DNA of 64,000 bases from Rhizaria sp. SCN 62-66. Taxonomy: Eukaryota. Every line of letters starts with the position of its first letter. Positions within the stretch are counted from its first letter, which is position 1. Both the position numbers and the translations under genes were made by a program. Below the pieces are notes generated by a model. The model was not told the origin of the DNA and made no database searches. It was given only the letters and a program-made list of their open reading frames with translations. Below are positions 3,501-56,471 of this stretch, piece after piece. The stretch lies in contig MEDY01000051.1 of assembly GCA_001724265.1 (NCBI GenBank), positions 1-64,000 of the forward strand, read 5' to 3'.

Positions 3501-3772
3501 AATGAGAAAAAAGAGTATGAATGAAAAGGTTACATATGAGAGAGTGTAGAGCCATTGTTATAATGCAAGTTCTGCGAAAGGAAAGGGATCATACGCGTGT
3601 GACATGCGGGCGGCGCGCGCTTGCACGCGACTCGCAGTTTGGATCATTGAACTAAAAGGGCGAAACCAGGACACAAATAAAGCAGATACAACAAAAAACC
3701 AACAGAACACGATATATGCGTTAGACGTACACGGCGTTGGAGAAGCTTCCAGTCCTTAGTAGTGTTGGACAT
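542..3772 (-). CDS. Alpha-actinin-like actin cross-linker (2 CH domains, about 5 spectrin-like repeats, C-terminal EF-hands); exons 3731-3772 and 542-3439; about 979 aa
   Basis: Exon 1 MSNTTKDWKLLQRR, GTACGT donor at 3730, CAG acceptor at 3440-3442, joining in frame to VFARWV. CH motifs (LVDLIEALSG; ALLRWVQRETAGYSGVNVVDFS; NGLAFCALIHKHRPDLI), helical rod, EF-hand FDKDGSGAL. Ends TAA. Confidence 0.9.
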
Positions 3773-4736: not shown

Positions 4737-5669
4737 ATGAGCACTACCGCCGCTCCCGCTTCCACCCCCGCTGCCGCCCCTGCCCCCGCCGCCGCCTCCC
4801 CCGCGGCCGCCGCTGCGCCCGCCTCAGCTCCCCAGCAGAAGCAGCAGCAGCAGAACCGCCGCCCCCGCGCTCCCCGCTCTGACAACGCTGCCCCCCGCTC
4901 CGACGCTACCGGCAACAACAACCACCGCAACAACCACCACCACCACCACAACAACAACAACAACAACAGCGACGACAAGGCTGAGGACATTGAGGGCCTG
5001 CAGATCAAGATCTCCGCCACCACCAACCCCAAGCTGTCCGCGGGCTCCATCGCGCACGCTATCCGCCGCGGCGAGTCCCCCAACGTCATGTGCACTGGCA
5101 GCACTTCCGTCAACCAGGTACGCACGCGCACAGAACTGCTGCACCGACGTTGTTTCACTCCAACTATAAACTACAGTCGCATCACTCGTTCGTCTCGCTC
5201 TTCTAACTTTTCTCATTCTCGTGCTTCTTCTCTCTTGCTTCTTGCTCCACAGGCTATCAAGGCGATCGCCATTGCCCGCGGTTTCCTCTCTGCGGAGAAC
5301 ATCAACATCGTGGTCTGCCCCTCGTTCCGCGACTACCCCCAGCGCCTGCGCATGATCTTCAAGATCACCCGCGGCGACGACGTCGAGGCCTCTGCCGACG
5401 CCGAGTCGGATCTCCGCGTCGCCCAGGCTTCGCAGTTCGCCATCGTCGCGGGCGCCATTGCCAAGAAGGTCCGTGCCGAGGAGGCCCCCTTCATCACGTG
5501 CATCGGCGCCAACGCCATGGGCATCGCCGTGCTGTCGATCGCGCGCGCGCGTCTGTACCTCAAGCAGGACAACCTCGACCTCGTGTTCCGCCCCCAGTTC
5601 GTCCACGTCAACATGCAAAACGAGACGCGCTCGGCGATCCGCTTCGCCATCTTCTCGCGCCCGCTCTAA
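4737..5669 (+). CDS. Protein with two tandem SpoVS (stage V sporulation protein S, Alba-like fold) domains and a low-complexity N-terminus; exons 4737-5117 and 5253-5669; about 265 aa
   Basis: Removing the GT..AG intron 5118-5252 restores IKISATTNPKLSAGSIAHAIR...GSTSVNQAIKAIAIARGFL...VCPSF, matching the SpoVS signature (KVS..S.P..VAGA.A...GAGA.NQAVKA.AIARGF). Second copy: LRVAQASQFAIVAGAIAKKVR...IGANAMGIAVLSIARARLYL...PQF...RSAIRF. Ends TAA. Confidence 0.85.
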   Translation: MSTTAAPASTPAAAPAPAAASPAAAAAPASAPQQKQQQQNRRPRAPRSDNAAPRSDATGNNNHRNNHHHHHNNNNNNSDDKAEDIEGLQIKISATTNPKLSAGSIAHAIRRGESPNVMCTGSTSVNQVRTRTELLHRRCFTPTINYSRITRSSRSSNFSHSRASSLLLLAPQAIKAIAIARGFLSAENINIVVCPSFRDYPQRLRMIFKITRGDDVEASADAESDLRVAQASQFAIVAGAIAKKVRAEEAPFITCIGANAMGIAVLSIARARLYLKQDNLDLVFRPQFVHVNMQNETRSAIRFAIFSRPL

Positions 5670-7459
5670 GTAACTCGCCCGCGCTGTATAAGCAGGTGTA
5701 TGCGGACAGTGTAGTGTGTAGCATAATAGTGACAGCTGCGGCAGGTAACGGACGAGACAAAAACACTACATGAAGCGCCGCACACGCACGGGGAAGTGAA
5801 CTTGTGCTTTGCATGCAATTTCATTCATTCATCATCATTTGGTGTTACGTTGTGCGTGAATGAAAAACATAATAATTAATGAGCAAGCATAAGCATACGC
5901 CACATCACGTTTTAAAAAGAAGCAAGTTTGACGGCAAAGTTAGTTCTCTACCGGTCGTTATATATCAAAACGAGCAAACTATGACTCATCTTTGTGAGGC
6001 TTATGAGTGCGATATATGACCCTGGACCGGCGGAGATACAACCAGAGCCAGAATAGCCAGGGCCGCCTTGCATTTACAGTCGTTGTTTGCTGTATTTTAG
6101 CAGCTGTTGGAGCTGTAGCTGTAGCTGTTGCTGTAACTATTGCAGTAGTCGTCGTTTCTGTTTGTTAATCGTCGTCGTTGTTGTTGAACCGAGCTGTAGT
6201 TTTTGTTTAGTTCTGTGCCTAGCCATGAGCTAGCTAACACCTCGGGCGGTTTGTTAACTCGGGTGACCGTGCGCATTTGTGCAATATCACACTCTACAAC
6301 CAACATTCATATGACCCGCACATATATGACCTGCTGTCATTTATATATGCACTGCACGACACTCCCTGGTCGGTCAGTTCTGATCTCGTACTCTGCTTTG
6401 TATGCAGGGACTGAGTGATATGATGTTGATGTTGTGTTGTTATGTTGTCCGGTGTTTCACTTTTGTGTTACCTGACCCCGTTGCGTTAGTTTGTGTCACT
6501 AATACGCCGCTCCTCGGCCGGCCGAACTTGAACAAACAACAACTCCTTCGCAGTGCGTTTTTTTTGTGGAACTAACTTAAACTTCTCGATTGCTTATTTA
6601 CTACGCTGACTACTGTTTCTGCCGCGCCATGTAAAAGCCATCTCTTTTGCTGTGCTGTGTGTTGTTGCTTTGTTGTGTTGATTATACGTGTGTTTTTGAC
6701 GACTCTGTTCTAATGTGTTATTTATGCGTGCATGTGCGTTTACGTGCGTGTGTTGTGGTTGTACGTTCTTCGTACATCACCGTTGGTGTCAGTAGGTCAG
6801 TAAGTCAGTGCTAGAGGTCAGGTCGCAGTGCCTGCGCTAGTGTAAGTGGTAATGCTTGTGTTTGAGTATGTGAGTGAGTGTGAGTATGTGTATATGTTGT
6901 TGCTGTTTTTATGGTAATTTAGAGGTAGGGGAGGAACTTGAATGTCTCTTGTTCGTGGTACTTGAGAGTAATAGTAAGTATTATTGCAATAGATTCTGTA
7001 ATTCATGTTACCTTTTCAATTCCGCTTCACTATCAATTCGCTACACCAGCGACCAATGCGGAAAGTAGATTGCAATACAACAAGAATTTGAACAAGAACC
7101 AGGTTGGTCGGCGAGTTCGGAATAATGGACGTAATGTGATCATATAACAGTTTAAAGTTTCTGAAAAAGATACTTTATGTAGTACACTTACAAAAATCTA
7201 AGAAAACACAACCACTTACTTTCTAAAAATGACTGATTGTGACATTACTAACTAGTAACAAAACAAACTAAAAAAATACACTAATCGTAACAAACAACAT
7301 CAACACAGCAAAGTAACTTGAAGCTAACTCAACAGTGATATCTTTTCTTCAGGAAGCCATGCTAGAGTCGTCATTGTTGTTGATCTTTTAACTTATTTCC
7401 GCCTCCAACTTGCGGACAAACCGCCCAAAACACAAGATTCTTACACAATAGGTTCTCGC

Positions 7460-14607: not shown

Positions 14608-17600
14608 ATGTGGCTGACGTCGCTGCTGACGGGCCCGCCCCGCGTGGCTGGCGCGCCCCGCCGCCCGCCGCTGTCGCTGCTGCTCAGCTCGCAGGTCTCG
14701 CGCCTCCGCGCGCTCTGGTCGCGCACGCGCCCGCAGTGGCTTACCACGCTGCTCCGCGCTCTGCTCGCGCTTGTCCGCTCGCTGCTGCGGTACCGGCCCG
14801 TCGCGTTCGTGTATAACACCAACGTCGCGCTCTTTCGCGTCGTGTTCGATGTCGCCCGCTGCGCCGCACGCTGGACCGTCTACCTGTTCGACCCCGCCGC
14901 GGTCACCACGCTCGCGCTCAAGCACTACGTCCTCCTCTGCGCGCTCTACGCCGTACTCATTGTCTGGCGGCTCTGCTTCCAGGCCTCGGCCGCGCGCCTG
15001 CGCAGCGCGATAACGCTCTGGCTCTCGCCGCCCGCCGTCCGCGCGCGCGCGCACGCGCTGCAGCGCGAGCTGGAGGCCGCCGAGAGCTACGCGCAGTGGC
15101 GCCGCGCTGCTGAAGGACTGGACGCGCTCGACGCGCGGTCCGCGGAGTGGAAAAGTCAAGCCGCGTCGTCGTTGTACGACTTCCGGCGCATCTCGATGCA
15201 CCTGCTGCGGCTGCGCGAGCTCTACGACGCGCGCGACACGCAGGGCCTCATGTGGTTTCTCCGCGCCTCGCTCGTGCGCAACATCGTCGGCATTAACCAC
15301 AAGCACCTGTACAGCCGCCTCCGCGCCGGAACAAAGACTTTGATCGAGGACTACATCAGCGAAGTCGTGCGCGCGCTGCAGCTCGTGTGTGTGACCCCCT
15401 CGCCCGCGCTCTCACTGCAAGACAAGCTCGCGTTTTTCAACGAGACGCGGCACGCGTACGGCCGCTCAGCGCTGCTGCTCTCGGGCGGCGCGACCCTGGG
15501 GCTGTATCACACGGGCGTGGTGCGCGCGCTGGCTGAGAATCAGCTGCTGCCACGCGTCATCGCAGGCTCCTCCGTCGGCAGCATTATCTGCGCCATCGTC
15601 GGCACGCGCACGGAGCCGGAGCTGCTGGACCTGCTCTCCGGCCGCGCGGGCGCGCTGAACCTCTCCTTCTTCCCGTCAAACGAGAGCTCCGTGAGCCGTA
15701 AGGTGCGGCGGCTGCTGTACGAGGGCCGTCTCATGGACATCGACATCCTCAGCCGCGCCGTGCAGTCTAACGTGCCGAACCTGACCTTCCAGGAGGCATT
15801 CGACCGCACGGGCCGCATCGTCAACATTGTTGTTTCGCCCGCCGCTAGCGCTGGCAACCGCGAGCGGTTCCGCATCCTCAACTACCTGACCGCACCTAAC
15901 GTGCTCATCTGGTCCGCCGCGCTGGCGTCGTGCGCGATCCCCCTTGTATACCAGTCCGTGGAGCTGCTGGCCAAGGACGACCAGGGCAACACCGTGCCGT
16001 ACTTGAGCAACGAGAGCGTCAAGTGGGAGGACGGGTCCTTCTCGCTCGACCTACCCATGGCGCGGCTGTCCGAGCTCTTCAACGTGAACCATTTCATCGT
16101 CTCGCAAGTCAACCCGCACATCGTGCCGTTTCTGACGTTTCTTCCGGACATCGACGCCGGTCACGCTGCGGGCACGGGCGCGGCCGCGCGTAGCGCCGGC
16201 GGCGTCCGCAGCGCGCCCTGGGACTTCCTTTGCAACCCGGTGTCGCGGCTCCTGCGCTTCCTGGGCCAGTCGCTGTCGCAGCTCGTGCTGAGTCTCGGCG
16301 ACCTAGGACTCGTCCCCGTGCACTCGTACGTTGGCGCGCTGCTGAACCAGTCCTACACGGGCGACATCACTATCCTGCCGAGCCAAATCACGCACCGCGA
16401 CTACCTGACGCTGCTGCACAACCCGACGCCCGAGTCGCTGGATAGGCAGATGCGCGCCTCGCAGCGCGACTGCTGGGCCATGCTGCCGCGCATCGAGGCT
16501 GCGTGCGCCATCGAGTTCACGCTCGAGGAGTGCGTCGCGCGGCTCCGGGGCGTGCAGCTCATGGAGGCCTTCCAGAAGCGTACCAGGCTCATCAACAACG
16601 CGAACGCGATGAACGCTGCGAGTGCGGCGGCGATCCCGCTCGGCAGCAGCTTTGTCGGCGCGCATGTTGACGCGATGGGAAGCAGAGAGAGACTAATGTT
16701 GCAGCAACAGCAGCAGCAACACTCTCGCAGTGCTTCGCGCTTGCACCAACATGCGCACTCGCAGTCCCTGTCGCGGCCGCAGTTTGCACACTCACAGTCG
16801 CTGTCGCAGTCGGATCTGCCGCCGGAGCAGAAGTATGCGCAGTATGCCGTCCCTCTGCAGTCCCAGGTGCGACCGCTACAGCAGCAACAAAGGCAGAGCC
16901 TCCCGGGATCTGTGCCTCAGCAGCAGCAACAGCAACACAAGGGTCCGTTCAGCGCCCTCGCCCCCACAGTGACCGTGTCGGCCACTGGCAGGGGTTCGCA
17001 GTCCGGCGCGACCGTGAACACCACAGGTTCCTGGTCCGGCACCATGGGTTCCGCTGTGGGCGCCACGGGTGCGCCGATCCGCCGTGCGTCTGCGTCGCTG
17101 CTCAGTCTGAAGCTCGAGCGCGAGCGCAGTCGTCGCAGTGACCCACCGCGGTCCGCGCAACAGCAACAGGAACAACAGCGGACGCATCAGCAGGCGCACA
17201 GGACAAACACCGGCAGCGCTGTGACCACGGTGCAGTTGCACTCTGAGTTCCCGTCTGGCACCGGAGGACTGCGTCTCTCCACGACCACAACGGCAGCCCC
17301 CGTCGGCGGCGTTGATGTGACTAACAACAGTAGTAGCAACAGCAGCAGAGCGACGCACAGCGTTGTCGCAGGCGGCGCCAGCGCGAACATGTGCCGCGTG
17401 CGCTCGTACGCTGCGGACATGCTGTCATTTGGGCCCCTCTGTATGCCCGAGCCCCAGTCGGAATACTATCAACCTCAGAGTGCGGCGCAGCCAAGTCAAG
17501 CAGTCGCTACGACCACGGCAATGCGTGTTAACTCTGATGACAAGCGCCGGTCTTCCTCTACTGCCACAGCTGCCGCCGTCAACGCCGGCGTCGTTGCAGC

Positions 17601-20600
17601 GACTGGCGACCGGGATAGCGAGGGCGACCTCTGCGACGTCGCCGGTGATGACGCGGAGGAAGAGACTGTGAGCGTTTCGTTTACCGGTGGTTCCCCGCTT
17701 GGCGACCAGCTTTTCGTCGACGACTACTATGCCGCGAACAACGCGAGCAATGGCGAACCTCTCATTGGCACTGCCGCGGGCGGCAGTAAAGCGAGCTCTG
17801 GCGCGAGGCAGGATGTCTGCGGCGAATCTTCAAGCGTCCCCCCTGGGGTCACCGACATCAACGCTCTTCCTGCTGCGAACAAGGACGCCGCAAGCGCTGC
17901 GGGCGCGGGTGGCGGCGCTGGTGCGGATGCTGCTGGTGCCTATCTGTCACCCGGCGCTCAGTCCCAGCTCCAGTCCCCGCCTGCCTCCGCCGCCGCGCTC
18001 GCTGCTGCGATACAGTCTGGCGCCAACGCCCCTGACGACGACGCAGGGTTCGGAATCTCTCTCGTGCCCCTCTCCCCGCCGCATTCGCAGTCGCAATCCC
18101 ACACCCAGTCCCACCCTCTGTCGCTACTGTCACCGTCCGTGCTGTCGCCCTCGCTGTCGAGCGACCCGCGCCGGCCGTACCGCGCCAGTCTCGCGGCGCA
18201 GGACGCGCTGGCGGTGATGGACCTTGTCGATGACGTTATCGGGGCGAATAACGCGGTTGTCAACGCGCCGCTTGTCGACGGTACTGCGCACCTACGCCAC
18301 TTTGCTGATGACGATGAAGCCACTGTTCAGAGCCAGTTTGACTCGACTTATGGGCGTTTTCCGGGCCAGGAGCAGCAGTCGCAGCAGCTGGAACCGCTGC
18401 GTCCGCAGATTATCGGCAACGCTAACAGCATCTACATGGGCAGCCGCAGCAGTCGCAGTAGCTTTGGTTACGATCAGAGCCAGAGTCACGCTCATGTCGC
18501 CGCTGTTCCCACAGCCTCTGATGCTCTTGGCCACCCGACGGCGCAGGGACGGCGCCTGAGCATTGGGCTCACTGTGTCGCCTTCGCACATGTTCGCACTC
18601 GACGGCGGTGTCGCGCCCGCCTCATCCAGCGCTGAAGTGAGCGATCACATGCACACCACCGCGGAGACTCACGATGGCGATGACGGTGCCGTTAATGCTG
18701 CTGCACCGTTGCCGAACCCGACTGTGATCATGCCGTCCGCTCTCGTGGCCACAACTTCCGCAGCCTCTGCGCCTGTTGCTCCGACGACAACAGCAGCTGG
18801 GCCGGCCGTGACCACTCTTGTTGCCCCTGCCTCTGCTCCTCTACCTGTTCCCGCCTCTTCTGTTTCTGCGCCTGCTGTAACGGCAGTGTCGGTGGCGACA
18901 GGCTCCTCGGCGTTCGAATCGACCCCGCAGCGTCCCATCTCGCGGAAGTTGAGCCGCCAGCAGCTTGCCTTCCTCACCAACACGCCCTACCAGCAGTACC
19001 CACAGGCGCAGTTGCAGTCGCAGTCGCCCGTCCCTGTGCTCGGCCCGTCCCTCTCGAGCGTCAGCCACAGCAGCAGCGCGTACGGCCACCCCGCTCTCAG
19101 CCTCGGCCTCCCCGCGGCAGTCTCGCTCTCGCCCCAGTCGGGCACCGTCTCGCTCACTTCCGCGCCCGCGCCTGCTGCCGCGCCCGGCTCCGCCTCCGCT
19201 CCCGCCACTGGGTTAATCACTGCCGCTGCGCCTGTCCCTGGAACTGCTGCCTCTGCTTTTGCTCCCATCTCGGGTGCGCCGGCGCTGTCTGCGCTCACTG
19301 GCGCCTCGACTCTAGTTGGCGCTGGCGGCGCTGGTGTTCTGGCCGAGGACCGCGGCGACTGCAGCGTGCTGGAGCAGTTGTGGGCGATCGCGCCCGTGGT
19401 CAACGACCGCGGCGAGCTCGAAGTTGAGCAGAGCCCGGGGCCGAGCCGCGGGCAGAGTCCGGGCTACGAGTACGCGCACAGCCACGGCCACAGCCACAAC
19501 CAGGGGTATGACTACAGCCAGAGCCAGAACGGGAGCAATAACAACAGCTATGGTGACGGTTACGACGACCATACCGGTGACGGTGAGGACTACAACAGTC
19601 CTGTTGGTGTAGATGCGCACAAAGACGGCGGCGAAGACGAAGGCGTGGCCTTGTGCTCTGGGCCTGCGTCGCGCTCACAGTCGCGGTCACGGTCGCGGTC
19701 TCGTACGCGGGCTCGCTCGGGCTCGGATGCTGATGAGGAGGACGGCTCTGAATCTGATTCGAACTTGAACAGTTCTAAAACACGCGCTAAAGCTAAGACC
19801 CAGTCACCGACGCATCCCCCTTACACAACGGGCAACACTGGCTTCATCGATCTCGACGCTGACGACACCGCGACGGGTTTCGTGATGATGCAGCCGAGCG
19901 CACTTGCTGCGAAGCCCGCAGCTCCTGCTCCTGCCACTCCCCACCCCACAACCGCTCCTCTCAGCGCCGCAAGCGTCGCCGGTGCTGGTGCCCACGCGGT
20001 CGGACACACGCGGCCTCGGTCGCACACGGACGCTGAAGTCACTGGCTCAAGCACTGGCATCGACGCCGACACTGATACTGGCGCTGCTGGTGCTGCTGCA
20101 ACGCAGCGCAAGCGTAGTGGTGCTGGCGTTGTTGCCGGCGACAATGAGCTTGACCACGACGCCGACGGCGACGCCGCTGTGTACGCGTCGGACTCGTACG
20201 ACAGCAACGACAACGACGGTGCTGGCAGTGTGAGCAGTGGCACTCAAAACAACAACATCAGCGCCGCCAGTGTCCCCAAACACGCAACGACGCACGGCCA
20301 CGCTCGCGGACACGGCCAGGGCAGTGCGCGCAGGGGCAGGCACCGCAGCAGCAGCGGCAGCGTCGCGCACAGCCACGGCCACAGCCACAGCGGCAGCTAC
20401 CGCGGCAGTCTCGACTCAGCTGCTGCTTCCGCAGTTGCAGCGCTGCCACAGTCCCCGTCGCAGCCGTACGGGAGCGTTGCGCACAGTCAACAGCCGCCAG
20501 CGCCGGGCACTCCCGCTCCGGCGCAGCCCCAGCTGCCGCTGCCACTGTCGCTCCCGCGTTTCCGCGCGACGATGCCGCGGCAGCTGTCTTCTGTGCAGCT

Positions 20601-21384
20601 CGCCAGCGTTCTCGCACAGCCTCCGCTGTCGCAGTCGCACTCTCAGTCGATACCGCTGACGAAGTCGCTGGCCCAGTCTCTGTCGCTCGCGCCGTCACAG
20701 CAGGGGCGCGCGTCCCCGGCTCTAGGCTCGCTCAACGCGTCCGCGGCCGCAGTGTCGCCTCAACAGCTGCAGCAGCAGCAGCAGCAACGGTCGCGGTCTC
20801 CGGCTCTTGTGCTGTCGCCGTCGCAATCATACGGATACGCACAGACCTACCTGCAACAACAGCGGCCGGGAGGTCAACAATCGTATGAAGTTGCGAAGTC
20901 ACTCTCTATGTCGCCGCTCCAGGCGCATCAGACCCAACGGCTGTCGCATTCGAAGTCTCAAACCATGTTGCCGGCGGCTCCCGACTTTTCTGATGCTGCG
21001 ATGGAGACAGCAGCTGTTTCATCAGCCTCTTTTGTGGCGGCTGCCCCTACTGTCACCCTTGTTTGTGGCCACCATGGCTCTCTTTCGCTTGAAGGTGGAC
21101 AGCCAGAGCAGTTGTCGCAGGCACAGGCGCAGCCGCAGCTGAACCAGGCACAGCTCCAATCACAGCCGCCGGTGCAGCAACCGAACAGGGGCATGGTTCG
21201 CGCTTCCGCTTCTGCGCGCGCTCTCTACGGGCTGTTATCGGGTGATACAGGACCTGGGGTTACAAGCTCTTCAGGTGCAACGACATCCAATGAAGCAGCA
21301 ATGGCCCAAAATGTCACTGAATCAGTATCTGGCCAGGTGAGTCCGAGTGATGACGATGCATACCGCGCGTATCGGAGCGAATAA
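14608..21384 (+). CDS. Patatin-domain triacylglycerol lipase (SDP1/Tgl3-5 family) with about 1600-aa disordered C-terminal tail; 2258 aa, no intron needed
   Basis: N-terminal hydrophobic segments; DUF3336-like region (YAQWRRAAEGLDALD..WK; LRASLVRNIVGI...LY...GTKTLIEDYI); oxyanion SGGATLGLYHTGV; nucleophile GSSVG; LNYLTAPNVLIWSA; catalytic DGS; LSELFNVNHFIVSQVNPH. Ends TAA. Confidence 0.9.
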   Translation: MWLTSLLTGPPRVAGAPRRPPLSLLLSSQVSRLRALWSRTRPQWLTTLLRALLALVRSLLRYRPVAFVYNTNVALFRVVFDVARCAARWTVYLFDPAAVTTLALKHYVLLCALYAVLIVWRLCFQASAARLRSAITLWLSPPAVRARAHALQRELEAAESYAQWRRAAEGLDALDARSAEWKSQAASSLYDFRRISMHLLRLRELYDARDTQGLMWFLRASLVRNIVGINHKHLYSRLRAGTKTLIEDYISEVVRALQLVCVTPSPALSLQDKLAFFNETRHAYGRSALLLSGGATLGLYHTGVVRALAENQLLPRVIAGSSVGSIICAIVGTRTEPELLDLLSGRAGALNLSFFPSNESSVSRKVRRLLYEGRLMDIDILSRAVQSNVPNLTFQEAFDRTGRIVNIVVSPAASAGNRERFRILNYLTAPNVLIWSAALASCAIPLVYQSVELLAKDDQGNTVPYLSNESVKWEDGSFSLDLPMARLSELFNVNHFIVSQVNPHIVPFLTFLPDIDAGHAAGTGAAARSAGGVRSAPWDFLCNPVSRLLRFLGQSLSQLVLSLGDLGLVPVHSYVGALLNQSYTGDITILPSQITHRDYLTLLHNPTPESLDRQMRASQRDCWAMLPRIEAACAIEFTLEECVARLRGVQLMEAFQKRTRLINNANAMNAASAAAIPLGSSFVGAHVDAMGSRERLMLQQQQQQHSRSASRLHQHAHSQSLSRPQFAHSQSLSQSDLPPEQKYAQYAVPLQSQVRPLQQQQRQSLPGSVPQQQQQQHKGPFSALAPTVTVSATGRGSQSGATVNTTGSWSGTMGSAVGATGAPIRRASASLLSLKLERERSRRSDPPRSAQQQQEQQRTHQQAHRTNTGSAVTTVQLHSEFPSGTGGLRLSTTTTAAPVGGVDVTNNSSSNSSRATHSVVAGGASANMCRVRSYAADMLSFGPLCMPEPQSEYYQPQSAAQPSQAVATTTAMRVNSDDKRRSSSTATAAAVNAGVVAATGDRDSEGDLCDVAGDDAEEETVSVSFTGGSPLGDQLFVDDYYAANNASNGEPLIGTAAGGSKASSGARQDVCGESSSVPPGVTDINALPAANKDAASAAGAGGGAGADAAGAYLSPGAQSQLQSPPASAAALAAAIQSGANAPDDDAGFGISLVPLSPPHSQSQSHTQSHPLSLLSPSVLSPSLSSDPRRPYRASLAAQDALAVMDLVDDVIGANNAVVNAPLVDGTAHLRHFADDDEATVQSQFDSTYGRFPGQEQQSQQLEPLRPQIIGNANSIYMGSRSSRSSFGYDQSQSHAHVAAVPTASDALGHPTAQGRRLSIGLTVSPSHMFALDGGVAPASSSAEVSDHMHTTAETHDGDDGAVNAAAPLPNPTVIMPSALVATTSAASAPVAPTTTAAGPAVTTLVAPASAPLPVPASSVSAPAVTAVSVATGSSAFESTPQRPISRKLSRQQLAFLTNTPYQQYPQAQLQSQSPVPVLGPSLSSVSHSSSAYGHPALSLGLPAAVSLSPQSGTVSLTSAPAPAAAPGSASAPATGLITAAAPVPGTAASAFAPISGAPALSALTGASTLVGAGGAGVLAEDRGDCSVLEQLWAIAPVVNDRGELEVEQSPGPSRGQSPGYEYAHSHGHSHNQGYDYSQSQNGSNNNSYGDGYDDHTGDGEDYNSPVGVDAHKDGGEDEGVALCSGPASRSQSRSRSRSRTRARSGSDADEEDGSESDSNLNSSKTRAKAKTQSPTHPPYTTGNTGFIDLDADDTATGFVMMQPSALAAKPAAPAPATPHPTTAPLSAASVAGAGAHAVGHTRPRSHTDAEVTGSSTGIDADTDTGAAGAAATQRKRSGAGVVAGDNELDHDADGDAAVYASDSYDSNDNDGAGSVSSGTQNNNISAASVPKHATTHGHARGHGQGSARRGRHRSSSGSVAHSHGHSHSGSYRGSLDSAAASAVAALPQSPSQPYGSVAHSQQPPAPGTPAPAQPQLPLPLSLPRFRATMPRQLSSVQLASVLAQPPLSQSHSQSIPLTKSLAQSLSLAPSQQGRASPALGSLNASAAAVSPQQLQQQQQQRSRSPALVLSPSQSYGYAQTYLQQQRPGGQQSYEVAKSLSMSPLQAHQTQRLSHSKSQTMLPAAPDFSDAAMETAAVSSASFVAAAPTVTLVCGHHGSLSLEGGQPEQLSQAQAQPQLNQAQLQSQPPVQQPNRGMVRASASARALYGLLSGDTGPGVTSSSGATTSNEAAMAQNVTESVSGQVSPSDDDAYRAYRSE

Positions 21385-22253: not shown

Positions 22254-24250
22254 ATGTTTTCCCACTCCACACAAGACCCGGCTCGCGCTCGGGGAGGCTT
22301 TTCGCCATATCCAGCTTACGTGTCAGCAACCGCCCCTCCCGCACCCGGCTCTATCTCCGTCTCTGCCACCGGCGCTGGCGCAAACCCCGCAGCCGGCGTT
22401 GCCGGTTCCGGTGTCGCGCCCGCCGCGGGTCTGTTCTCTGTCGCCACCACGTCGCCGTCGCCTTCGCCTTCCGGCATGCTCAGCAACGCGGCCGGCGCGA
22501 TTAAGAACCCCGCTGACACTAAAAACACTCCTGGCGGCGGCAGCACTTCCCACAGCGGCTCTCTCGACTCCAGCGCGGCCCCGTCGTCTGGCCTCGCGGG
22601 TCTCCCGCAGGCCGTGCGCCCCGCGAAGCCCGCGCCGATTTTCACCGGATCCTTCGCTCCGTTGCTGCCCGGCGCTGGCGCGGGCCCCGGCTCGGCCCCT
22701 CTGATGCAGGCGCAGCACCAACACTACCACGGCGCCCACGGCCAGCAGGGCCACGGCCTCCACGGCCAGTTCGCGCACCACCAGAGCCACGGCAGCCACG
22801 GCGGCGGCCTCGGCGGCTCGCTCGCAGGCTTCGACGTCACCATGTCGGCCTCGACGCAGCCCGCGAGCCCCGGCTCCGTGGGTGGCGCCGGCTCTAGCTC
22901 CGCCTCCGTCCCCGGCGGCTCCGCGCTCAGCCCGTTCCCGTTCCCGCCCGTCTCCGCCACCGTGGCCAACGCGTTCTCCGGCGCCAGCTCCAGCGCGAGC
23001 TCCAGCTCCGGCGCGGGCTCGGCGCAGCAGCAGGGCGGCCACCTCAGTCCCAATCCGCATCTGCACCCGCACAACCAGCCTCAGTATCCGCCGTCGCACG
23101 CGCACGCACACACGCCCAACCCCAGCTTTAGCAGCGGCATGGCCGGCGCCGGCGGCCAGTTCCAGCCCCACGGCGGCCACGGGCTTGCGCAGTACGGCGC
23201 GCTGCCCCCACCGCCGCACCTGGGCTACCCGGGCGGCGCGCACGGCCACGGCCACGGCCACGGTCACAGCCAAGGTCACGGCCACGGGCTGTCGCCGCAG
23301 CCGCAGTCGCAATCGCCCGCGGGCTCGTTCCCGTCCTCGACGCCCACGACGTCGCGCTTCCTCTACCCGACGGCCAACAGCAACGGCGGAAGCAACAGCG
23401 GCAGCAACGCGCATAGCAACGCGCAGGGCCTGCAAGGCCAAATGTCTCAGGGTCAAATGCCCCAGGGCCAGCAGGGAGGCCAGTTCGGCGGCGGGCTGAG
23501 ATCGCAGTCGCAGATGGCTGGCCTCCACTCTATCGCGGCGTCCTCAGCTCACGGCCACTTCGGCATGATGGCTACGGCGTCCCCCGCGCTGCCCACAGCG
23601 GCCTCCCCAGCGCCCACCTCGGTCTCCACGACGCTCTCGTCCTCGGTCTCGGTCGCCGCCCCCGCCAGTGGCCTCGCCGCCCCCGCGCCTACCTCGGCCT
23701 CGGCCTCCGTGTCCGGTGGCGCTGCTGGCGCTGCTGGTGCCGCCTCTGGCGCCGCTTCAGGCGCCACCGGCTCCGCCTCCGGCAAGGGCCCGGTGGTGCC
23801 GAACGCGAACCTGTACGTGCGCAATTTGCCGCTGCACTGGACAGCGACCGAGCTCACGGCGTACTTCGCCCCATTCGGCGCGCCCGCGTCGGTGCACGTC
23901 ATGGCGGACCCCGTCTCGGGACTCTCCAAGGGCGTCGGCTTCGTCCGCTACCCGCACCTCTCCTCGGCCAACGCGGCCATCGCGGCGCTGCACAAGGTCG
24001 CCCCGCTCGACGGCGCCAAGGTGCTCGTCGTTAAGTACGCGGACCGCAACGACCGCCCGCCGCGCTCCGCCGTGCTCGGCGCTGCGGGCACCGTAGGCTC
24101 TGTTGGCGGCAACGGCGGCGGCAACAACAATGCCGCCGCTGGGGGCAACGCGCCCGCGGCTCTCGCAGCGGGGCTGCTGGGACAGAACGTACGGCAGCAG
24201 CAGCTGCTGATGAGCATGCAGGCGATGCAGGGCATGGCCGGGCTGATTGG

Positions 24251-24315
<65 letters not shown>

Positions 24316-27300
24316 TGCAGCAGCAACAGCAGCAGTCGGACGCCTTCTTCCAGCAGCAACAGATGATGCTGATGATGGGCCAGAATAACATCAACAACAA
24401 CAGCGGCAACAGTGCGTCGGCGACCGCGACTGCTGCGACCGCGGCTGCCACAGCCATGTCCGCCGCCTCGCTCACCCTGTCCTCGTTCAACCAAATGGGC
24501 GGCAACGACGACGGCGATGGCGCCGACGGCAACGGCGCCGACAACAGCGGCGCATTCCCCCCCGGCGTGGACCCCGCGGCCGTGGCGGCCGCCGTGGTGG
24601 ACTCGATCGCGCTCGCGCTGGGTCCTTCGGTGGGCACCGTGTTCCGCTACCTGGCGGCGCCCATGCTCGCCGCGCCGCCCGCCACGCAGGAGGACTTGAT
24701 GCGCCAGATCGCCTACTCTGCGGCCACCGCGGCCACAGCCACGGCCTCAGTTACCGCAGGCGCCCCCGCCGTCCCACCCCTGCCGCTGTCGACTGCGCAG
24801 AGCGTGGCTGCGCTCAGCAGCAGCGCCGGGCTCGCCAGCGCGGCGCTGTCCGTCACGTCGGACTCGCCCGCGCCCTCGCTGCCCAGCGGCATCCTCGCCG
24901 CGGGCAACAACACGACCTTCGTCAACAACAACTTCGTCAACACCAGCAGCAGCAGCAGCAGCGCCTCGAACGCCCTGCTCGCGCACGCGCTCAGCAGCCT
25001 GCCGCCGTCGACCGCGCTGGCGACCAAGAACAACAGCAGCAGCAGCAACAGCAGCAGCGACATGGTCGCCCACACGAGCGCTGGCGGCGTCGGCAGCGCA
25101 ACCGCAGCAGCCTCGCACCTCGGCGTTCCGGACCAGATGTCTTTCGGTGACATGTCCTCCGTCTGCGCGTCCTCCGTGCTGTCGCCCGCGTCCACCGCGC
25201 CCGCGCCCGCCGCGCCCGCCGCCGCCAACGCCGCCGGCATCGCCGCCGGTAGCACCGGCGTGACCATGAGCACCGCGACCATGCAGCGCGCGAGTGTGGG
25301 CGCGAACTTCTTCAAGCACTGCTCTGCCGCCGCGACAGCGGCCGCTGGTGCCGAGGACGCTGCGCAGCTCCGCACCGCTGGCAAGGGCAGGCTTAGCACC
25401 GACAACACCAGCAAGAAGACCAGCTCCGACGCCACTGGCGCTGACAACATCGACGCTGGCTCTGCTGGCGCTGCCGGCGCTGCAGACGCTGCTGGTGACG
25501 CCCTCGCTGCCGCGGGTGCCTCTGCCGACTCCGACGAGACCGCGGCCGCCACCCCGACGACTGCGACGGCGACGGCGACCGCTGGCGCGCACCGCCGCGG
25601 GCTGTCACTGCCCGCCGGCCACACCGGCGCGATGGCCGCGGCCGCCGCGGCCGCCGCTGCCAGCGCCACCGTGGGCGCCAACTCCGGCCGCGGCACGCGC
25701 TCGCGTGCTCTCGACACGAGTGCGGGCAACGCCGCTGCGGGCGGCGCTGCGGCGGGTCCTCGCCCTGGCCCGGAGGACGAGGACGAGGACGGCAACGGCA
25801 ACGGCGACGGCGAACAGGACGAGGATGACCACGGCGACGGACTGTCGCAGGTGCCGTCTTCGGTCGCGCTCACCGCGAACCCGCGCCGCGGCCGCGCTGG
25901 CAACAAGGCCGGCACCGGCGCCGGCAGCAGCAGCGACAAGCAGAGCGCTGTTGATGGCGAGAGCGCCAACGCCGCCGCCGAGAACGACGACGTCGACGAC
26001 GAAAGTGTTGACAAGCCCAAGCCCCTGCCGTGCCCTTCGATCCGCGCCAAAGTCACCACCTTGAACGCCGCCCGCAACATCCCCAACGACGACGCTAGCG
26101 ACGGCGACGGCGACGACGCCAGCGACGCCCTGCCCTCCGAGATCTGCCTGTCCTCGCCCGCGGCGTCCCCCGTCCCCGCGTCCAACGGCGGCGGCGCCTC
26201 TGGTGCGGGCTCGGGTCTCCCGTACGAGAGCCTCTTCGCGCGCGGCCGCCCCGGTCTGTTCGTCGGCGTGTCGGGCCCCGCCGCGGTGCCCCGCCCCAGC
26301 AGCGCGCTGGCCACGCCCACGCACACGCCCAACGCCGCTGCCGCCGCCGCCGCCGCCGCTGCCGCCGCGAACGTTTCTGCTGGCGCCGCTAGCGGCTCCG
26401 GCAGTGGCGCGAACGGCGCACCCCCGACGCCCCGCAGCGCGCTCGCGCTGGCGATGGCCACGCACCAGCGCACGCCGCCGCCGCAGTCGTCGGCCGCCAC
26501 CGCGGCCACTGCCGGGGCCGCGTCGTCGAGCGCGACCAAGCTTGCCACTGCGGCAGGCAGCAACAACGGTAACGGCAACGCTGCCGCTGCTGGGTCGTCC
26601 CTCGCTGTTGCAGTGGGCTCATCGTCCGCGACCCGATCCACAGGCTCCGCCTCCGCTTACGCCTCCGCGTCCTCCATCTCCGGCTCCGACTCCGGCGCCA
26701 GCGGCAACGGCAACGGCAACGGCAGCGGCAGCGGCAGCGGCGTGCGTATGGTGATGCCGGTGCCGTCGCCGTCGAATCACCGGCTGCGCGAGCAGGTGCA
26801 GGCGCTGCAGAGCTCCGCGGCGCGCTGCGACGACAACAACAATGCCGCGGACAACAACTGCGAGGACGAGTCGCCCGACGCCCCCGCGCGCTCCCTCGCG
26901 AGCGTGCGCGAAGGCGCTGTCGATGACTCGGACAAACAACAGCAGCAGCATCAGCATCAGTAGCAGCAGGGCGATGACAGCAACGCCAACGACGTCGCCG
27001 CCGCTGCCGGTACGAACGCGCAGCATCTCGCGCTCCCCCAGATGCAGCTCCAGCAGCAGCAGCAGCAACAGTTGCAGCATATGCAGCTGCTGCAGCAGCG
27101 CCAGCAGCAGACGCAGGTTCAGGCGCAGCTCCAGGCGCAGCTGCACGCGCTGCAGACGCAGCTGCAGCTGCCGGGCCAGTCGCCGCAGGCGCAGGCGCAG
27201 CTGCTGCACCAGGTGCAGCTGCACATGCACGCGCTGCAGCTCAACGCCATCGCGCTCAACAACCCGGCCGTAGCCAGTTCCGCCGGTGGCGCCGCGTTTG

Positions 27301-28703
27301 GCGTGTCCGCGTCGGCGCTGTCGCAGGCGCAGCGGCCGCCGATGCCGCCCTCGCGCACGGCCCCGTCGCCCGCGCCCAGCAACACGACCAATAGCAGCAC
27401 GCCCGCCGGCGCCGGCAGCCAGGGCCTCAACTCGGCCCGCTCGCGCCCCGGCCAGAGCGTCACCAACTCTGCGCGCGGCGACAACAACGCGTCTCCGTCC
27501 CCCTCGCTGAACGGCTCCGAATCCTCCTTGGCCTCCGCGTCCGCCTCGGCTTCCGCGGCCGCCGCCGCCGCCGCCGCGTACGCCGCGGTCCTGCAGGGCG
27601 CTAACGGGCTTGCCACGCCCGGCATGACCGTGACGCCCACGCTGTCGCCCTCGCCCTCAGTCATGGCCGCTGCTGCCGCCGCTGCGGCGCAGGCCGCCTC
27701 CGGCAGCGGCGGTGTCGGCGGCGTCGGCGGCGTCACCCTGCCCGGCTACACGCTCTCGGGCCAGGCGCTCTCCGCCGCCGCCGCTGCTGCCGCCGCTGCC
27801 GCCGCGGCGGCCGCGTCCAACGCCGCACTGTCGGAGCGCTTTTCGTCGACGAACATTTACGTCGGCGGCTTCGGCGACCACGTGACTGAGGCGGAGCTGC
27901 GGAACGTCTTCGGCGTCTTCGGGCCCATCTCGTCCGTGCGCATCATGTCGGACGACGCGACGGGCCGTGGCAAGGGCGTCGGGCTCGTGCGCTACACCTC
28001 GGCCGACGCCGCTTCGGCCGCCGTGCTCGCGCTTAACGGCGCGCTGGCGCCCGCGCAGGCTCTCGGCGGCACGCGTCCCCTGCAGGTGCGGCACGCGCGC
28101 GTCGGCGTCGCTAAGGCGCGCGCCATGGCCAAGGCCGGCGGGCCGATGCCGCCCATGCCGCCCATGCCGCAGATGGGCCAAATGGCCCAAATGGGGCAGA
28201 TAGGGCAGACGGGGCCGCTGGCGGTGCCGCAGATGTCGATGGCGCAGATGGCGATGCTGGGCATGGGGCTGAACAACAGCACCAGCAACAGTGTTGGACA
28301 GCAGCAGCAGCAGCAGCAGTTGGGGCAGCTGTCGATGCCTGTGGGCATGGGCATGGGCGCCTCTCTGCACGACGGCAACAACAACAACGGCTTGATGAAC
28401 AACAACGGTATCAGGGCTGCGGGTGCGTTCGGCGACTTCAATATCAACGGTAACAATGCGGGCAACTTGATGCAGCAACAACAGCAGATGCAGTTCAATG
28501 CGAACAACGGCTCGTTCGGCTTCGGAGACGCTTCACTCACTGGGAGCAACAACGCCACTAATGGTGTTTCTGGCTCCGGTGGCTTGGATGCGGCGACGCT
28601 CGCGTCGCTGCCGCCCCACATCTTGCAGCAACTCATGTCGACTCAAGCTGTCGTCATGCAGCAACAGCAACAGCATCAGCAGCAGCAGCAACAGCAACAG
28701 CAT

Positions 28704-28760
<57 letters not shown>

Positions 28761-29354
28761 CAGTTTGATAATAACCAGTTTGATAACGATGGCAGCGCTA
28801 ACGGCAGCATGTTTTCCCCTTCTTTCGGCAGTTTCAACCGCGGCGGTGGTGACATGGACACCAACGACAACTACGCTGACAACAACAACAACAACAACAA
28901 CAACAGCAACAACAACAACAATAATAACACCTTTGGCAATAGCAACAACGGTAGCAACTTTAGCGGCGACGTGAGCATGCCGATGAGTTTGCCCATGAAC
29001 ATGAACATGAACAACAACGGCCCCAACATGTTTGCTGACGGCGGTCTCAACAACAACGGTTTGTTCCATGGCGGCAACACTAACGCCGGTGGCGCGTTCA
29101 CGGCGTTCGACTTCGGCGCTTTTGACAGCAACACCGCCGCCGACGGCATCGACCTGGGCCTCGTCAACGGGCTTAACGGCATGGACTCCGGCATGGGCAG
29201 CCTCAACGACATGAGCCGCGGCATGAACGCCGGCATGGGCTTCGGCATGGGCGGGCTCGACTCGATGCTCGGCGGCGGTGGCGGCGCCGGCGCCTCGCCC
29301 AGCCCTTTTGGGCAGCAGCAACAGCAGCAGGACAATGACGGTAACATGATGTAA
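22254..29354 (+). CDS. Two-RRM (ELAV/Sxl-like) RNA-binding protein with polyQ/N/A tracts; one ORF of about 2366 aa if TAG 26961-26963 is read as sense
   Basis: RRM1 NLYVRNLP...SKGVGFVRY (about 23805-24040); RRM2 NIYVGGF...GKGVGLVRY (about 27850-28100). ORFs 22254-26963 and 27042-29354 share a frame and are separated only by one TAG plus 26 open codons. Ends TAA. Confidence 0.8.
24252..24314 (+). repeat. (CAG)21 coding polyglutamine tract; further CAG/CAA tracts at about 28660-28762
   Basis: Direct reading; in frame with the RRM gene. Confidence 0.9.
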
Positions 29355-46041: not shown

Positions 46042-46832
46042 TTCAGCAACAACTAATCTATACAAAAATTGCAATAAACGCTCTGGTACGGGTTGATAGA
46101 ACGAGACTAGAGAGAGAAACCAACGAGAGTAGGTAGTGGCGGTGAGGGTTGGTTTCTTGACATCGGTTTCGGAGGACACATCACATTCCCGATCTTCATG
46201 AAAGCTATAATTTAAAGATAGTTGAAAAAAAAGTGTGATGTAAGAAATAAATGGTTTATGAAGTCATTAACGCCCAGTTTCCGCCACAGCACCATGTCAA
46301 ACAACGCGCTCGTTACTTTACCCCCCACCCCCTAACCAGCCGCCACCACAGATACGCAGGACGAGTCAAGCAAGCAGTCAATAGCAGCTGTTTTGAGCGT
46401 AGAGGTGATCTGAACAAACAGAAACAGAAACGAAAATAAACGTATAGTATACATGTACATATAGTGCGAATATTCATATAACGTAGTAGCCAACGAATAA
46501 CCTTGGAGAAAAGAACAAGAACTCGGAACAAAGAAAAAGAAAGGAACATAACAGCAGAGTCGTTATTTTACAAAACAAACAAGAAAACACAGAGACACAC
46601 ACAAAAAAATATTTAATTTGACTCAGCCACCAACATACAGACATGTCCACACGTGAACAATCAGAAAATAAGCGATATATATCCACGCGGGGCAGGCCCT
46701 CACACATCTATGCACGCTGCATCACCACTTCCGATAGCAAAACTTCGGTCACGTACGGACAAAGACTTACAAGACTTCGAGAAGTGAGGAGTCAGGATTT
46801 ATTTATGCTCACACAACAAACGCACCACAACC

Positions 46833-49800
46833 TCAGTCGAAGTTGTTGACGGCCTTGGCCTGGAGCGTCTGCAGCGCTTTGCGGTGCGCGATGAGCACCT
46901 CGATAGCGTTGACCCAGCGGTTGGCCTCCTTCTCGTCCGATGCCTCGAGGTCGATCGTGCGTTCGCGGCCCTGGACAGAGAAGCAGCACCGGTCGTTGGC
47001 GAGGAACTTGCCGAAGCGCTGGCGCTTGAGCTGCTCCGTGCAGCGTCCGCGCTCGACGGAGCGGATGCGGAAGATCTTCATGCGCGTCTCCTCCTCGACC
47101 ACCTTGGCCTTGGGATCCTTCCAGACGAGCCAGATCATGTCGTCCGTCACGTACACGTGGCGCGCGCGCGGCAGCGCCGTGCGCGAGTGCTTCTTGAGCA
47201 GCGCGCCGGCCGTGAGGAAGTTCTTGATCTTGGGCGGGATTTCCTTGATCTCGTCCGGAATCCGGTTCGTGGGCCCGGCAGAGTCGATGATCTCCTTGAC
47301 GTTCTTGCGCGTGCGGTCGAACGACAGGAAGTCGATGTCGTTGAACGAGAAGTCGACGCGGTTGAGCACGTCGATCACCGTCTGCGCAGCCGCCACAACG
47401 TCCTCGCGCGCGGCGTTCTCGGCCTTAATGCTCTCCATCGCCGGAATCACGCCCTGCGACTTCATCGTGTCGCGCACCGGCTGGCTCGCGTAGGCCATGT
47501 TCTCCAGCGGCTTGACGCCCGTGAGCACCACGGCCGGCGTCGCCACGTGCGCGCGAAGCACCTCGAGCATCGTCGCAACAAACGCCGTCTCGGCTGCCGT
47601 GACGGCGACGGGCGTGTGCACGAAGATGTTGGCAAGGAAGGTCGACACGGCGACGAGCGAGCTTGCCTCGCGCGCGCTGAGCAGCGTCGAGATAGACGCC
47701 TTGAGCGCGTCGTCGGCCATCGCCAGCGCGTTGTCCTCGGCGCGGCACATCGCACTGAGCGTGTTGAAGGCCTCGTTCACGACCTCTGGCGCACCGCCGG
47801 GGACGGTGGGCGAGTTGGCGCGCAGCAGCGTGAAGGCGAGCTCAATCGCTCCCTCGCCGGCCATGACCATGCTCGCGCGGTCGGAAAAGCACAGGTTAGC
47901 GAGCGTGCGGAGGCCGATGAGCGTGACGGCGGGGGCCGCGGCGTGAAGCTTGACGGCGCGCACGAGCTGCGACGCCACGCCGGGCTGGCTCAGGCGCTCG
48001 ACGTTGTTGATGGAGAAGGTGAGGTTGAAGATGAGGCGGAGCGCGAGCTCGGCGAAGGCGAGGTCGTAGCCGTGCGTGTTGAGCAGCGAGATGACGACTT
48101 CGGCGCCAATCTTGATGATCAGGTCCGCGATGTCCTGCAGCACCGAGAGGTTGCACAGGCCCGTGACCGAGAGGTGGCACAGCTCCAGGTTGGACACGTT
48201 GGCGCTGGCCACCTGCAGGATGGCCTGCACGGCGCCTTCGTCGACCATGGCGCGCATGTGGTCCGCGTTGCAGTTGGAGGCCAGCGTGGTGAGGGCGCGG
48301 ATGGCGACGTCAACCACAGCGGCGTTGTTGGTATGCGTCGTGAGCGCGACGACGGAGCACTGCACGCCGCCGGCCTTGATGATGACGTCTACCGTCTGCG
48401 GCACGGCGGCCAGCATCGACAGCGCACGGAACGCCGTGGTGAGCACGTCGACGTTCTCGTAGTTATTGAGAATGGCGAGCACGATGGCGTCGGCGCCGCC
48501 GGCGTTAGCGATGGCGAGCTTGTTGCCGTCGTTGGACTGGCACACGTTGCAAATGATGCAGATGGCCGAGTCCAGCACGTCGGGGTTGCTGATATGCTCG
48601 TTCATGAGCCCGATCACCACGGACGCGCCCTTAGTCGCCATCACGAACGCGCAGTTGGTCTCAGAGCCGTACGTCAGCTGCGCGAGCGCATACATCGTCG
48701 CCTCGAGCAGCTTCGCCTCCTTCGCGTGCTTCTGCAGGATCTGCATGATGAGACTGATACCGGACTCGACACCGATCTCCTCCTTGAGCGCGTCGTTGAC
48801 GGCAAAGTTGCCAAGCAGATACACGCCACAACGGACGAACTCGACGTTCTCGATGTTCTTGCGAATCGCGTCGATGAGCTCGCGGATCGAGTTGAACCCC
48901 GAGGCGGCGATCGCGGCCGCCACGTCATCGTCGTTGGATAGCTTGCCCAGCACCTTGGCCGCGGCGGCGATGACGTCGGCGTCCTCGTGCGTCGTCACAA
49001 TGCGCGTCAGCTGCTTCATCGTGCCGTTCGACGTCAAGTAGTCGGCCGCGGCACGGTCGTACGACAGCTTGCCCATGCCGTCGAGGTTCTTGCGCAGCTG
49101 CTTGGTCGCGACGGGCTCCTTGAACGTCACGTGCGGCAGTACGACCTGGCACTGCGCGCCGAGCACGTTGGGGTCCTGCAGCGCGGAGACAATGTCGTCC
49201 TCAAAATCACCGCAGAACTTCTGGAACGCGTTGGTGGCGCGCTTAAAGATGCTCTCGTTGTCGGGGTGCTTGACCATGAGCGCGGCCATGGCCTGCAGCG
49301 CGCCGTTGCGCGCGAGCGTGTGCACGGCGTCGGGGTTGTCGAGCATCATCTCGAGCTTGTCGAACATCTCAGACAGCGCATCCACGCCGTCGCCGTTGCC
49401 CGCCGCGGCCTTGACCATCGAGTGCAGGAATTTGGGCACTTCAGCCTCGTCCATCAGCAGCTTCTCGACGCTCGTGCGGCGCGCAAGCTTGTTGAGGTAC
49501 TTGCCGTAGGCCGTGAGCTCGTCGATGACGCGCTGCGTGACGACGCACGTGTCATCCTCCTTCTTGAAGCGACGCAGCACCCATCCCAGCAGCTCGAGCA
49601 TCGACAGCGGCTTTGCCAGCATGCGCTCCTTGTTGGCGTCCAGCGATGCGAGGGGCTCGAACAGCGTCGACGTGTTGAACGCGAGCCGCTCGGTGGCGTA
49701 GTGCGCGCGCAACGCCGTGGTGCAGAGCGGAATAACATCCTTTTCGCCCATCTCCGTGGCCATGGCCTCGCCGTGCGCGCCGGCCGTGAGCGTGATGAAC

Positions 49801-54830: not shown

Positions 54831-54871
<41 letters not shown>

Positions 54872-55350
54872 GCTAGGCCCACGGCAACGGTGGCCAGGCT
54901 CACGGCAACATGGGCCAGCATGTCGCGCTTGGCAGCGACGACGCGCCCGTGGCCACCGTGCTTGCGTATGATGACGACGAGGACGCTGAGGGTTGCCATG
55001 ACGGCTACAACAGCAACGGCGATCCTCGTACCGCTGCAGCGAATGGTAACGACTATACGTACAGCCAGGGCGCGTTCAACCAAGGCGTGTACCCCAACCA
55101 AGGCGCATACCCCGCGACACAACAAGGGGGCAGCAACCCTTCGCAAGCTGACAACCACGCCGAGAGCAATGCTGATGACTCTGACCAGTACGATAATCGG
55201 CAACAGCAGCCTCAACAACAACAGCAGCAACAGACGATGTCCGTGACTTCGGGTGCGACCACCGTGCATGTAAGTGCCTCGCCCACTTACACCTCGACCG
55301 TGGTTGTGGGCAACGACGACACTTACGTTGTTGCCACCTTGCCCCCTCAG

Positions 55351-55388
<38 letters not shown>

Positions 55389-56430: not shown

Positions 56431-56471
<41 letters not shown>

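Follow-up and report, generated by a model that had tools for sequence, protein, structure and literature searches.

The window analysed here spans the initial 64 kb of contig C51 in assembly G000, which is eukaryotic and comprises 34.9 Mb in 714 contigs. One of its plus-strand genes encodes a long RNA-binding protein in a frame that runs from an ATG at 22254 to a TAA at 29352-29354 and contains, as codon 1570 of 2366, a TAG. The features of this gene and the further in-frame TAGs of the window are as follows.

22254..29354, plus strand: low-complexity two-RRM RNA-binding protein, 2366-codon frame from ATG to TAA, no intron needed
about 23805..24044, plus strand: RRM domain 1 (Pfam PF00076, motif coordinates and Atlas RRM clusters)
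26937..26969, plus strand: Gln/His-rich run containing the TAG
26961..26963, plus strand: TAG lying in frame as codon 1570 of the two-RRM gene, putatively read as Glu
about 27849..28097, plus strand: RRM domain 2, accessible only via readthrough of the TAG (Pfam PF00076, best stretch aa 1868-1930)
54874..54876, plus strand: second in-frame TAG of the window, within a 1350-codon frame (53221-57273) ending in TAA
45868..45870, minus strand: possible third in-frame TAG, uncertain, as the gene that ends at 44281 may have its true start downstream of it

The Two-RRM Gene and Its TAG

The Pfam model RRM_1 (PF00076) matches two stretches of the frame, one on either side of the TAG. The codon adaptation value is 0.65 in the 60 codons 5' and 0.71 in the 60 codons 3' of the TAG, compared with 0.20 in the 3' UTR. 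The gene is coding-like on both sides, and its downstream codon bias is intact. An initial annotation, made from the sequence alone, had proposed that readthrough gives one 2366-aa two-RRM protein and that the two halves form one gene; the domains and the codon use on both sides agree with this. It had also described the TAG as in frame. That the codon is genuine and in frame is borne out by the frame coordinates and by a 582-base contig of run X3 that covers 26712-27293 with zero differences, TAG included. Run X3 is possibly the source data of the assembly itself, so this contig counts as a second assembly and not surely as a second sample. The codons quoted in that annotation are as written, but they begin with a CAA at 26937-26939, three bases upstream of the start assigned to them.

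Contigs of four of the 11 listed runs were compared with the window. The one from run X4 stops at 26960 and bears neither way on the TAG. The top runs containing window sequence are bioreactor and wastewater metagenomes; a habitat inference from runs X6-X10 was rejected, as the word shares are small. No orthologue of the low-complexity stretch around 26961 was obtained.

A purely local explanation would be that recoding is specific to 26961, by programmed readthrough, RNA editing or an intron that removes the UAG. The base following the TAG is C, and the codons UAG-CAG-CAG resemble a readthrough-prone context. Contig pieces of the poly(A) RNA run X5 flank 26961 on both sides and none among those listed crosses it, which leaves room for such an event; the listed RNA contigs in general span no TAG. 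Against an intron stands the absence of an acceptor-like T-rich tract in the 60 bases 5' of the TAG: their T content is 12%, while three real splice acceptors have 33-53%. The remaining evidence on this explanation comes from other TAG codons of the genome.

In-Frame TAGs and Stop-Codon Usage across the Genome

A codon model was applied to 977 kb, consisting of the window and fetched stretches. The stops flanked on either side by coding-like sequence comprised 14 TAGs, some of them doubtful, one TGA and no TAA; on inspection, the single TGA was an antisense artefact. Among 90,313 codons predicted in a 604-kb sample (the window plus untargeted stretches), no more than 17 are TAG, and about four of the 17 are probably false. 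TAG is the rarest sense codon; ATA and TTA occur 22 times each.

The gene ends give the complementary picture. Distinct gene-end-like stops numbered 73 for TAA, 40 for TGA and six for TAG. A filter that removed stops close to a splice donor or followed by GC-rich sequence dropped 30, 20 and four of these, respectively, which left 43 TAA, 20 TGA and two TAG in a sample of about 1 Mb of the 34.9 Mb. Both surviving TAGs are doubtful, since the frame continues beyond them. All 13 window genes checked terminate with TAA or TGA, as do the genes for eRF1, ubiquitin and ubiquitin-L40. In the roughly 1 Mb of the 34.9 Mb sampled, UAG is not a terminator and UAA and UGA are. No sign of UAA as a sense codon was found, with no internal TAA against 73 gene-end-like ones.

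Family searches yielded 11 exonic TAGs inside protein domains: in eRF1, six kinases, the SUV3 helicase, a Ras-like GTPase and two ubiquitin hydrolases. Alignments are ungapped across the eRF1, kinase and SUV3 (L223) TAGs. A hand tally of the base after 23 internal TAGs gave C 10, G 5, A 5 and T 3, a mixture that argues against a context signal common to the sites. Given these alignments and this mixture, recoding peculiar to 26961 is considered extremely unlikely.

The searches also produced candidates that were rejected. Two dynein TAGs flagged earlier are splice acceptors, and six of the 11 TAGs flagged in Pkinase matches, two of the three in Helicase_C, several in Ras, SNF2 and UCH matches, and those in kinesin, myosin, DEAD and two further kinase matches are acceptors or intronic. 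In the window, long TAG-interrupted frames at 46788-50969 (plus strand) are the antisense shadow of an armadillo-PH gene, and the TAG cases of L079, L082, L083 and L091:3052 are likewise antisense artefacts. No TAG lies inside ABC_tran, AAA or tRNA-synt_1c matches, and the readable frames listed for dynein heavy chains (20 stretches, 184 kb) hold no exonic TAG. A search for the pattern D-TAG-A-D/H gave 22 matches against 42 in the control, with the helicase motif in none of the 15 read. TAA and TGA codons flagged within family matches are intronic at the loci read, L109, L110 and L219-L222; further ones are flagged, for example on C147, C520, C178 and C66.

Some loci carry more than one TAG. 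A single plus-strand frame at L091 (2943-4442) has four, far above the genome rate, and one of them precedes what resembles, on visual inspection, a Nudix motif, with no Pfam match. A gene with a PH domain and a PTEN-like phosphatase domain at L085 (6665-8629, minus strand) has two in its linker, one of which sits in an acidic run. At L075 a TAG lies in a polyQ run, as at 26961.

The ordinary reading of the data would be the standard code: the TAG at 26961 would stem from nonsense mutation, allelic variation or an error in assembly, and the gene would be truncated or decaying. Changes from CAG to TAG are frequent in repeats, a truncated product would retain RRM1, and errors do occur in metagenome-derived assemblies. 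However, the coding-flanked stops are TAG only, the codon bias downstream of 26961 is intact, and both eRF1 and SUV3, essential-looking single genes, carry a TAG that is present in other assemblies: a second assembly (L154) is identical over 1626 bases of the eRF1 gene, TAG included, and public databases hold SUV3 as two halves split at the TAG, on seven and four contigs. A cognate tRNA and an altered eRF1, described below, are also present. The standard code is thus very unlikely here. In-frame TAGs exceed chance, and the one at 26961 is one of many rare ones and not a lone polyQ mutation. It is very likely, in our judgement, that UAG is a sense codon throughout this genome.

The Release Factor eRF1

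A search of the genome with PF03463 gave one eRF1 gene and one pelota-like gene.

G000:C63:101870-105199 (L031), minus strand: eRF1 gene with an in-frame TAG at locus positions 1594-1596

This TAG lies in mid-exon at the position of human E108, in the N domain, which recognizes stop codons. If amber codons were not decoded, the sole eRF1 gene found would give no full-length eRF1. The chance of a TAG in a gene of 435 codons at the sampled genome rate is 5-8%, and eRF1 was noticed after the fact. The gene is strongly biased in its codon use (adaptation 0.77), and the codon next to the TAG is the rare AAA.

Compared with 117 homologues, the predicted protein carries three substitutions: T32S (T in 116 of the 117), G57S (G in all 117) and T58K (T in 116). 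E55, NIKS, S70 and YxCxxxF are retained. Judged from the alignment, the changes thus appear to affect residues involved in reading the third base. According to the available part of PMC5304391, T32 forms a bond with the G of UAG, and Iotanema spirale has T32G in its eRF1. The change T32A is described in the excerpts of PMC3384315 as reducing release at both UAA and UAG, so the effect of T32S cannot be deduced from it. The closest eRF1 relative, P0004 (85% identical), also has T58K; T32 and G57 are unchanged in it, and Val occupies the TAG position. The source of P0004 is, by these residues, a candidate for a sister lineage that predates the recoding.

The tRNA with Anticodon CUA

If UAG is read as sense, a cognate tRNA is expected, and one gene was found.

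G000:C84, L044 1505-1577, minus strand: tRNA gene with anticodon CUA (pattern search and ARAGORN; Rfam tRNA model, 58 bits)

The gene is followed by a T run and is flanked on C84 by host-like ORFs. Its anticodon arm has no exact match in a collection of prokaryote genomes. A single DNA match to it exists in the genome, which has eight loci for tRNA-Glu(CUC). The label tRNA-Pyl assigned by ARAGORN goes with the CUA anticodon; the gene fits the Rfam model for tRNAs in general, and its body is Glu-like.

Several features place this tRNA next to tRNA-Glu. Its acceptor ends, TCCCA and TGGGA, are those of both tRNA-Glu species of the organism (CUC and UUC). Among the tRNAs compared, its best-scoring partner is tRNA-Glu(CUC) with a score of 68, the next reaching 51.5 and the tRNA-Gln species 18.5-30.5. 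The T stem is identical to that of tRNA-Glu(CUC), with only 47 of 73 bases identical overall. Both tRNA-Gln species of the organism begin with GG and have U73, unlike tRNA(CUA). The molecule also has U11-A24, U13-G22 and A46, and lacks base 47, and these are elements of Glu identity in E. coli according to the available part of PMC9976931. In the same excerpts, U1-A72 and G73 appear as bacterial Gln elements, and no identity set for eukaryotic Glu is listed. Both U1-A72 and G73 occur in tRNA(CUA), and by bacterial rules they count against Glu identity. Taking acceptor stem, discriminator and A46 together, tRNA(CUA) is a tRNA with a tRNA-Glu body, as judged by comparison, and not one derived from tRNA-Gln.

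A pattern search for a tRNA with anticodon UUA gave 10 matches, as many as the control, and none of them is readable as such a tRNA; an intron-containing or unassembled copy would escape this search. The result fits UAA remaining a stop.

The Residue Specified by UAG

Deep columns of homologues are available at three TAG sites, of which two are Glu columns. At the TAG of eRF1, 106 of the 117 homologues have E, 10 have D, one has V and none has Q. The V belongs to P0004, the closest relative, which suggests that the column is relaxed in this lineage. At the TAG in the hinge of the L137 kinase, E was found in all 147 covering homologues of the 150 listed, with the reservation that the query itself carried E; RAF and KSR kinases of known structure show Q and S here. 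Public gene calls truncate this kinase at the hinge TAG. The SUV3 column (n = 118) is dominated by D (99), followed by S (4), T (3), N (3), E (2), A (2), gap (2), and G, V and Q (1 each).

Pfam domain models were used to score eight residue readings at 10 domain sites; one kinase TAG that falls in an insert was left unscored. Relative to E, the summed bits were K -3.4, Q -3.8, D -7.3, S -7.4, Y -13.1, L -15.6 and W -19.9. E leads Q and K by a narrow margin, most of which one site contributes; the gap between E and Q is at most 0.3 bit at six of the 10, and the majority of single sites do not discriminate among E, Q and K. The TAG of a USP5-like gene gave no result in a large homologue search; it aligns to a C of human USP5, at the edge of a gap.

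The initial annotation had derived the TAG at 26961 from CAG by a single C-to-T change and had taken the residue to be Gln. A code in which UAG alone is Gln and UAA and UGA are stops, as in I. spirale and some phyllopharyngean ciliates, would accommodate the TAGs in the polyQ runs at 26961 and L075. It would also accommodate the Q of RAF kinases at the L137 position, the mere 3.8 bits that separate Q from E over the 10 Pfam sites, and a ubiquitin-like copy on C681, within a virus-like ORF, that has a TAG where the host ubiquitin has Q. Against it, the sole CUA tRNA found resembles tRNA-Glu and neither of the organism's tRNA-Gln species, and Q is almost absent from the deep columns (0 of 117 in eRF1, 0 of 147 at L137 and 1 of 118 in SUV3). 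Conserved Gln columns are thus not where UAG occurs; the relaxed ubiquitin copy is the exception, and this copy is diverged, with eight further substitutions in 72 residues counted by eye. A step from CAG to TAG is a transition of a common type, and its occurrence in relaxed polyQ would be expected under either code. A Gln code is therefore improbable. The C-to-T origin proposed for the TAG at 26961 remains plausible, but Gln as the residue is unsupported: the tRNA body and the E or D of the conserved columns point elsewhere.

Homologue columns and tRNA body taken together make Glu the best call for UAG. We consider it probable that the nuclear code is a clean one with UAG as Glu and with UAA and UGA as stops. 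With the tRNA-Glu body of tRNA(CUA) and the E/D columns at the other TAG sites, the site at 26961 is best read as QHQHQ-E-QQG, that is, as a Gln-to-Glu missense change under genome-wide recoding rather than as a site-specific event. Its likely history is a change from CAG to TAG, with the replacement of Gln by Glu tolerated in a disordered stretch.

Proposed Mechanism and the Completeness of Recoding

A sequence of steps can be proposed. UAG would have been abandoned as a terminator and would have reappeared rarely within genes, either from GAG (silent) or from CAG (Gln to Glu). The changes at T32 and in TASNIKS of eRF1 may weaken UAG recognition, the grip on a third-position G after A being lost. 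A duplicated tRNA-Glu may have acquired the anticodon CUA, which is one change from CUC. As CUA pairs with UAG and not with UAA, recoding would be confined to UAG. The ribosome would then insert Glu at 26961 and yield a single 2366-aa protein with two RRMs. From this set of parts we infer the expression of tRNA(CUA), its charging with Glu, an eRF1 blind to UAG, and the order of events.

Decoding may instead be incomplete. In an ambiguous intermediate, tRNA-Glu(CUA) would compete with an eRF1 that is still partly competent at UAG, each UAG would give a mixture of full-length protein with Glu and truncated protein, and the UAG of eRF1 would act as a feedback switch. TAG is the rarest sense codon and was seen in none of the dynein exons read, one tRNA(CUA) gene faces eight tRNA-Glu(CUC) loci, T32S is a conservative change, and the eRF1 TAG sits in a gene of otherwise strong bias. 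Rarity also follows, however, from GC-biased codon use, given the low counts of ATA and TTA, and from keeping recoded codons out of highly expressed genes, as described for Blastocrithidia in the available part of the literature. Moreover, gene ends are nearly free of TAG, and the eRF1 TAG has the 5-8% chance given above in a gene singled out post hoc. The rarity of TAG, its absence from dynein exons and the single tRNA gene would fit complete and competing decoding alike. Weighing these points, an ambiguous intermediate is unlikely. The same doubt applies to its fullest form, an early stop-to-Glu reassignment in a GC-rich, probably rhizarian flagellate, in which negative feedback through the eRF1 UAG would set amber readthrough across the proteome and the two-RRM protein would exist in a long and a short form.

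Precedents for such feedback exist. Bacterial RF2 controls its own synthesis by a frameshift in its mRNA. Plant eRF1-1 is autoregulated through readthrough and NMD, according to the excerpts of PMC5397192. As in both systems, the mRNA of a release factor could sense termination activity. Unlike in either, the stop-like codon here lies within the N domain of eRF1 and would be read by a cognate tRNA, and the feedback may be a matter of chance.

The Organism and Its Genome

The organism is a flagellated eukaryote, with 14 candidate places for dynein heavy chains and with spliceosomal introns. Its eRF1 shares the motifs LIRNL, SLVVPPK, ELRN and SAV[DE] with the sequence of the rhizarian exLh, as given in a supplement row of PMC5304391. 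These motifs occur in 0, 0, 1 and 1 of the 117 other homologues, the one being P0004 in each case. This hints at a rhizarian, with the qualification that few rhizarians are likely among the 117.

Low-complexity expansions are frequent in the genome. Within the window, very long low-complexity proteins are built around a patatin lipase domain (14608-21384, plus strand) and around two cytochrome b5 domains (57950-61165, plus strand). No close Atlas cluster was found for the large armadillo-repeat protein of 46833-52810 (minus strand), whose C terminus carries a PH domain. An intron-containing eukaryotic gene at 4320-5669 (plus strand) has three stretches matching SpoVS (PF04232), a family best known from bacteria.

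An 18S rRNA gene at L133 (G000:C706), 1501-5945, is divergent and AT-rich; it measures 4.4 kb and has four matches to group I introns, and its first insertion contains a stretch that resembles, by eye, a His-Cys box homing endonuclease. Ubiquitin is unusually diverged (L242, L243, L245-L250) and takes the form of short monomers that carry a C-terminal tail; no assembled polyubiquitin junction was found. The host protein has, for example, Gln in place of human Ala28. The virus-like ORF mentioned above (L244, G000:C681:2300-4300) has a low GC3 and fuses a diverged host ubiquitin to a Peptidase_S74 chaperone domain, with an in-frame TAG; no relative of it was found among viral contigs.

Relation to Known Codes

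Nuclear codes that reassign UAG alone are listed in the available part of PMC11687900 as Leu (exLh and TARA ciliates), Gln (I. spirale, two phyllopharyngeans and Protocruzia tuzeti) and Ser (Scotinosphaera). UAG as Leu in the rhizarian exLh and as Gln in I. spirale is described in the excerpts of PMC5304391, and those of PMC9161772 confine the Gln code to I. spirale. As in these codes, UAG here is a sense codon next to UAA and UGA as stops, and a single CUA tRNA suffices; T32 of the GTS loop is changed both in I. spirale (T32G) and here (T32S). The differences lie in the residue, where Glu is proposed in place of Leu, Gln or Ser, in the GC-rich genome (window genes are mostly 55-73% GC), and in frequency. 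UAG is used by 78-91% of genes in the recoded phyllopharyngeans (PMC11687900, available part), whereas it is found here in fewer than two per 10,000 codons.

UAG as Glu is stated in the same part of PMC11687900 to occur only alongside UAA as Lys, in PL0344. That ciliate, Oligohymenophorea sp. PL0344, has UGA as its only stop and has 10 CUA and 12 UUA tRNA genes, and its CUA tRNA genes are most similar to tRNA-Glu (PMC10553269, excerpts). The likeness to the present case is UAG as Glu with a tRNA-Glu-like CUA tRNA, a reading that comes here from sequence comparison. The difference is that UAA is Lys in PL0344; in the present genome it is the predominant stop, and the searches gave one CUA gene and no UUA tRNA.

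In Blastocrithidia, UAR is Glu and UGA is Trp, AT pressure has been proposed as the route, and recoded codons are avoided in highly expressed genes (PMC12153298, available part). Peritrich ciliates also have a known code with UAR as Glu, as far as the sources at hand describe it. A tRNA-Glu(CUA) derived from tRNA-Glu is a further likeness to both groups. In contrast, both recode UAA as well, under AT pressure, whereas here UAA and UGA are intact as stops and S70 of eRF1 is kept. No description of UAG as Glu with both UAA and UGA as stops was found in the mainly openly accessible literature, and an earlier report may exist.

Nuclear codes that separate UAG from UAA are few, and those listed give Leu, Gln or Ser. 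If true, UAG as Glu with both other stops intact would constitute a further code table and would be the missing half-step toward the codes in which UAR is Glu or in which UAA is Lys and UAG is Glu. Its occurrence in a GC-rich genome would run against the AT-pressure route proposed for Blastocrithidia. For the organism itself, public gene calls cut proteins at TAG. The parts are few and can be named, one tRNA gene and three eRF1 substitutions, and the loss of UAG with UAA and UGA retained is thus directly testable; a eukaryotic release factor that loses UAG would also bear on amber suppression in eukaryotic cells.
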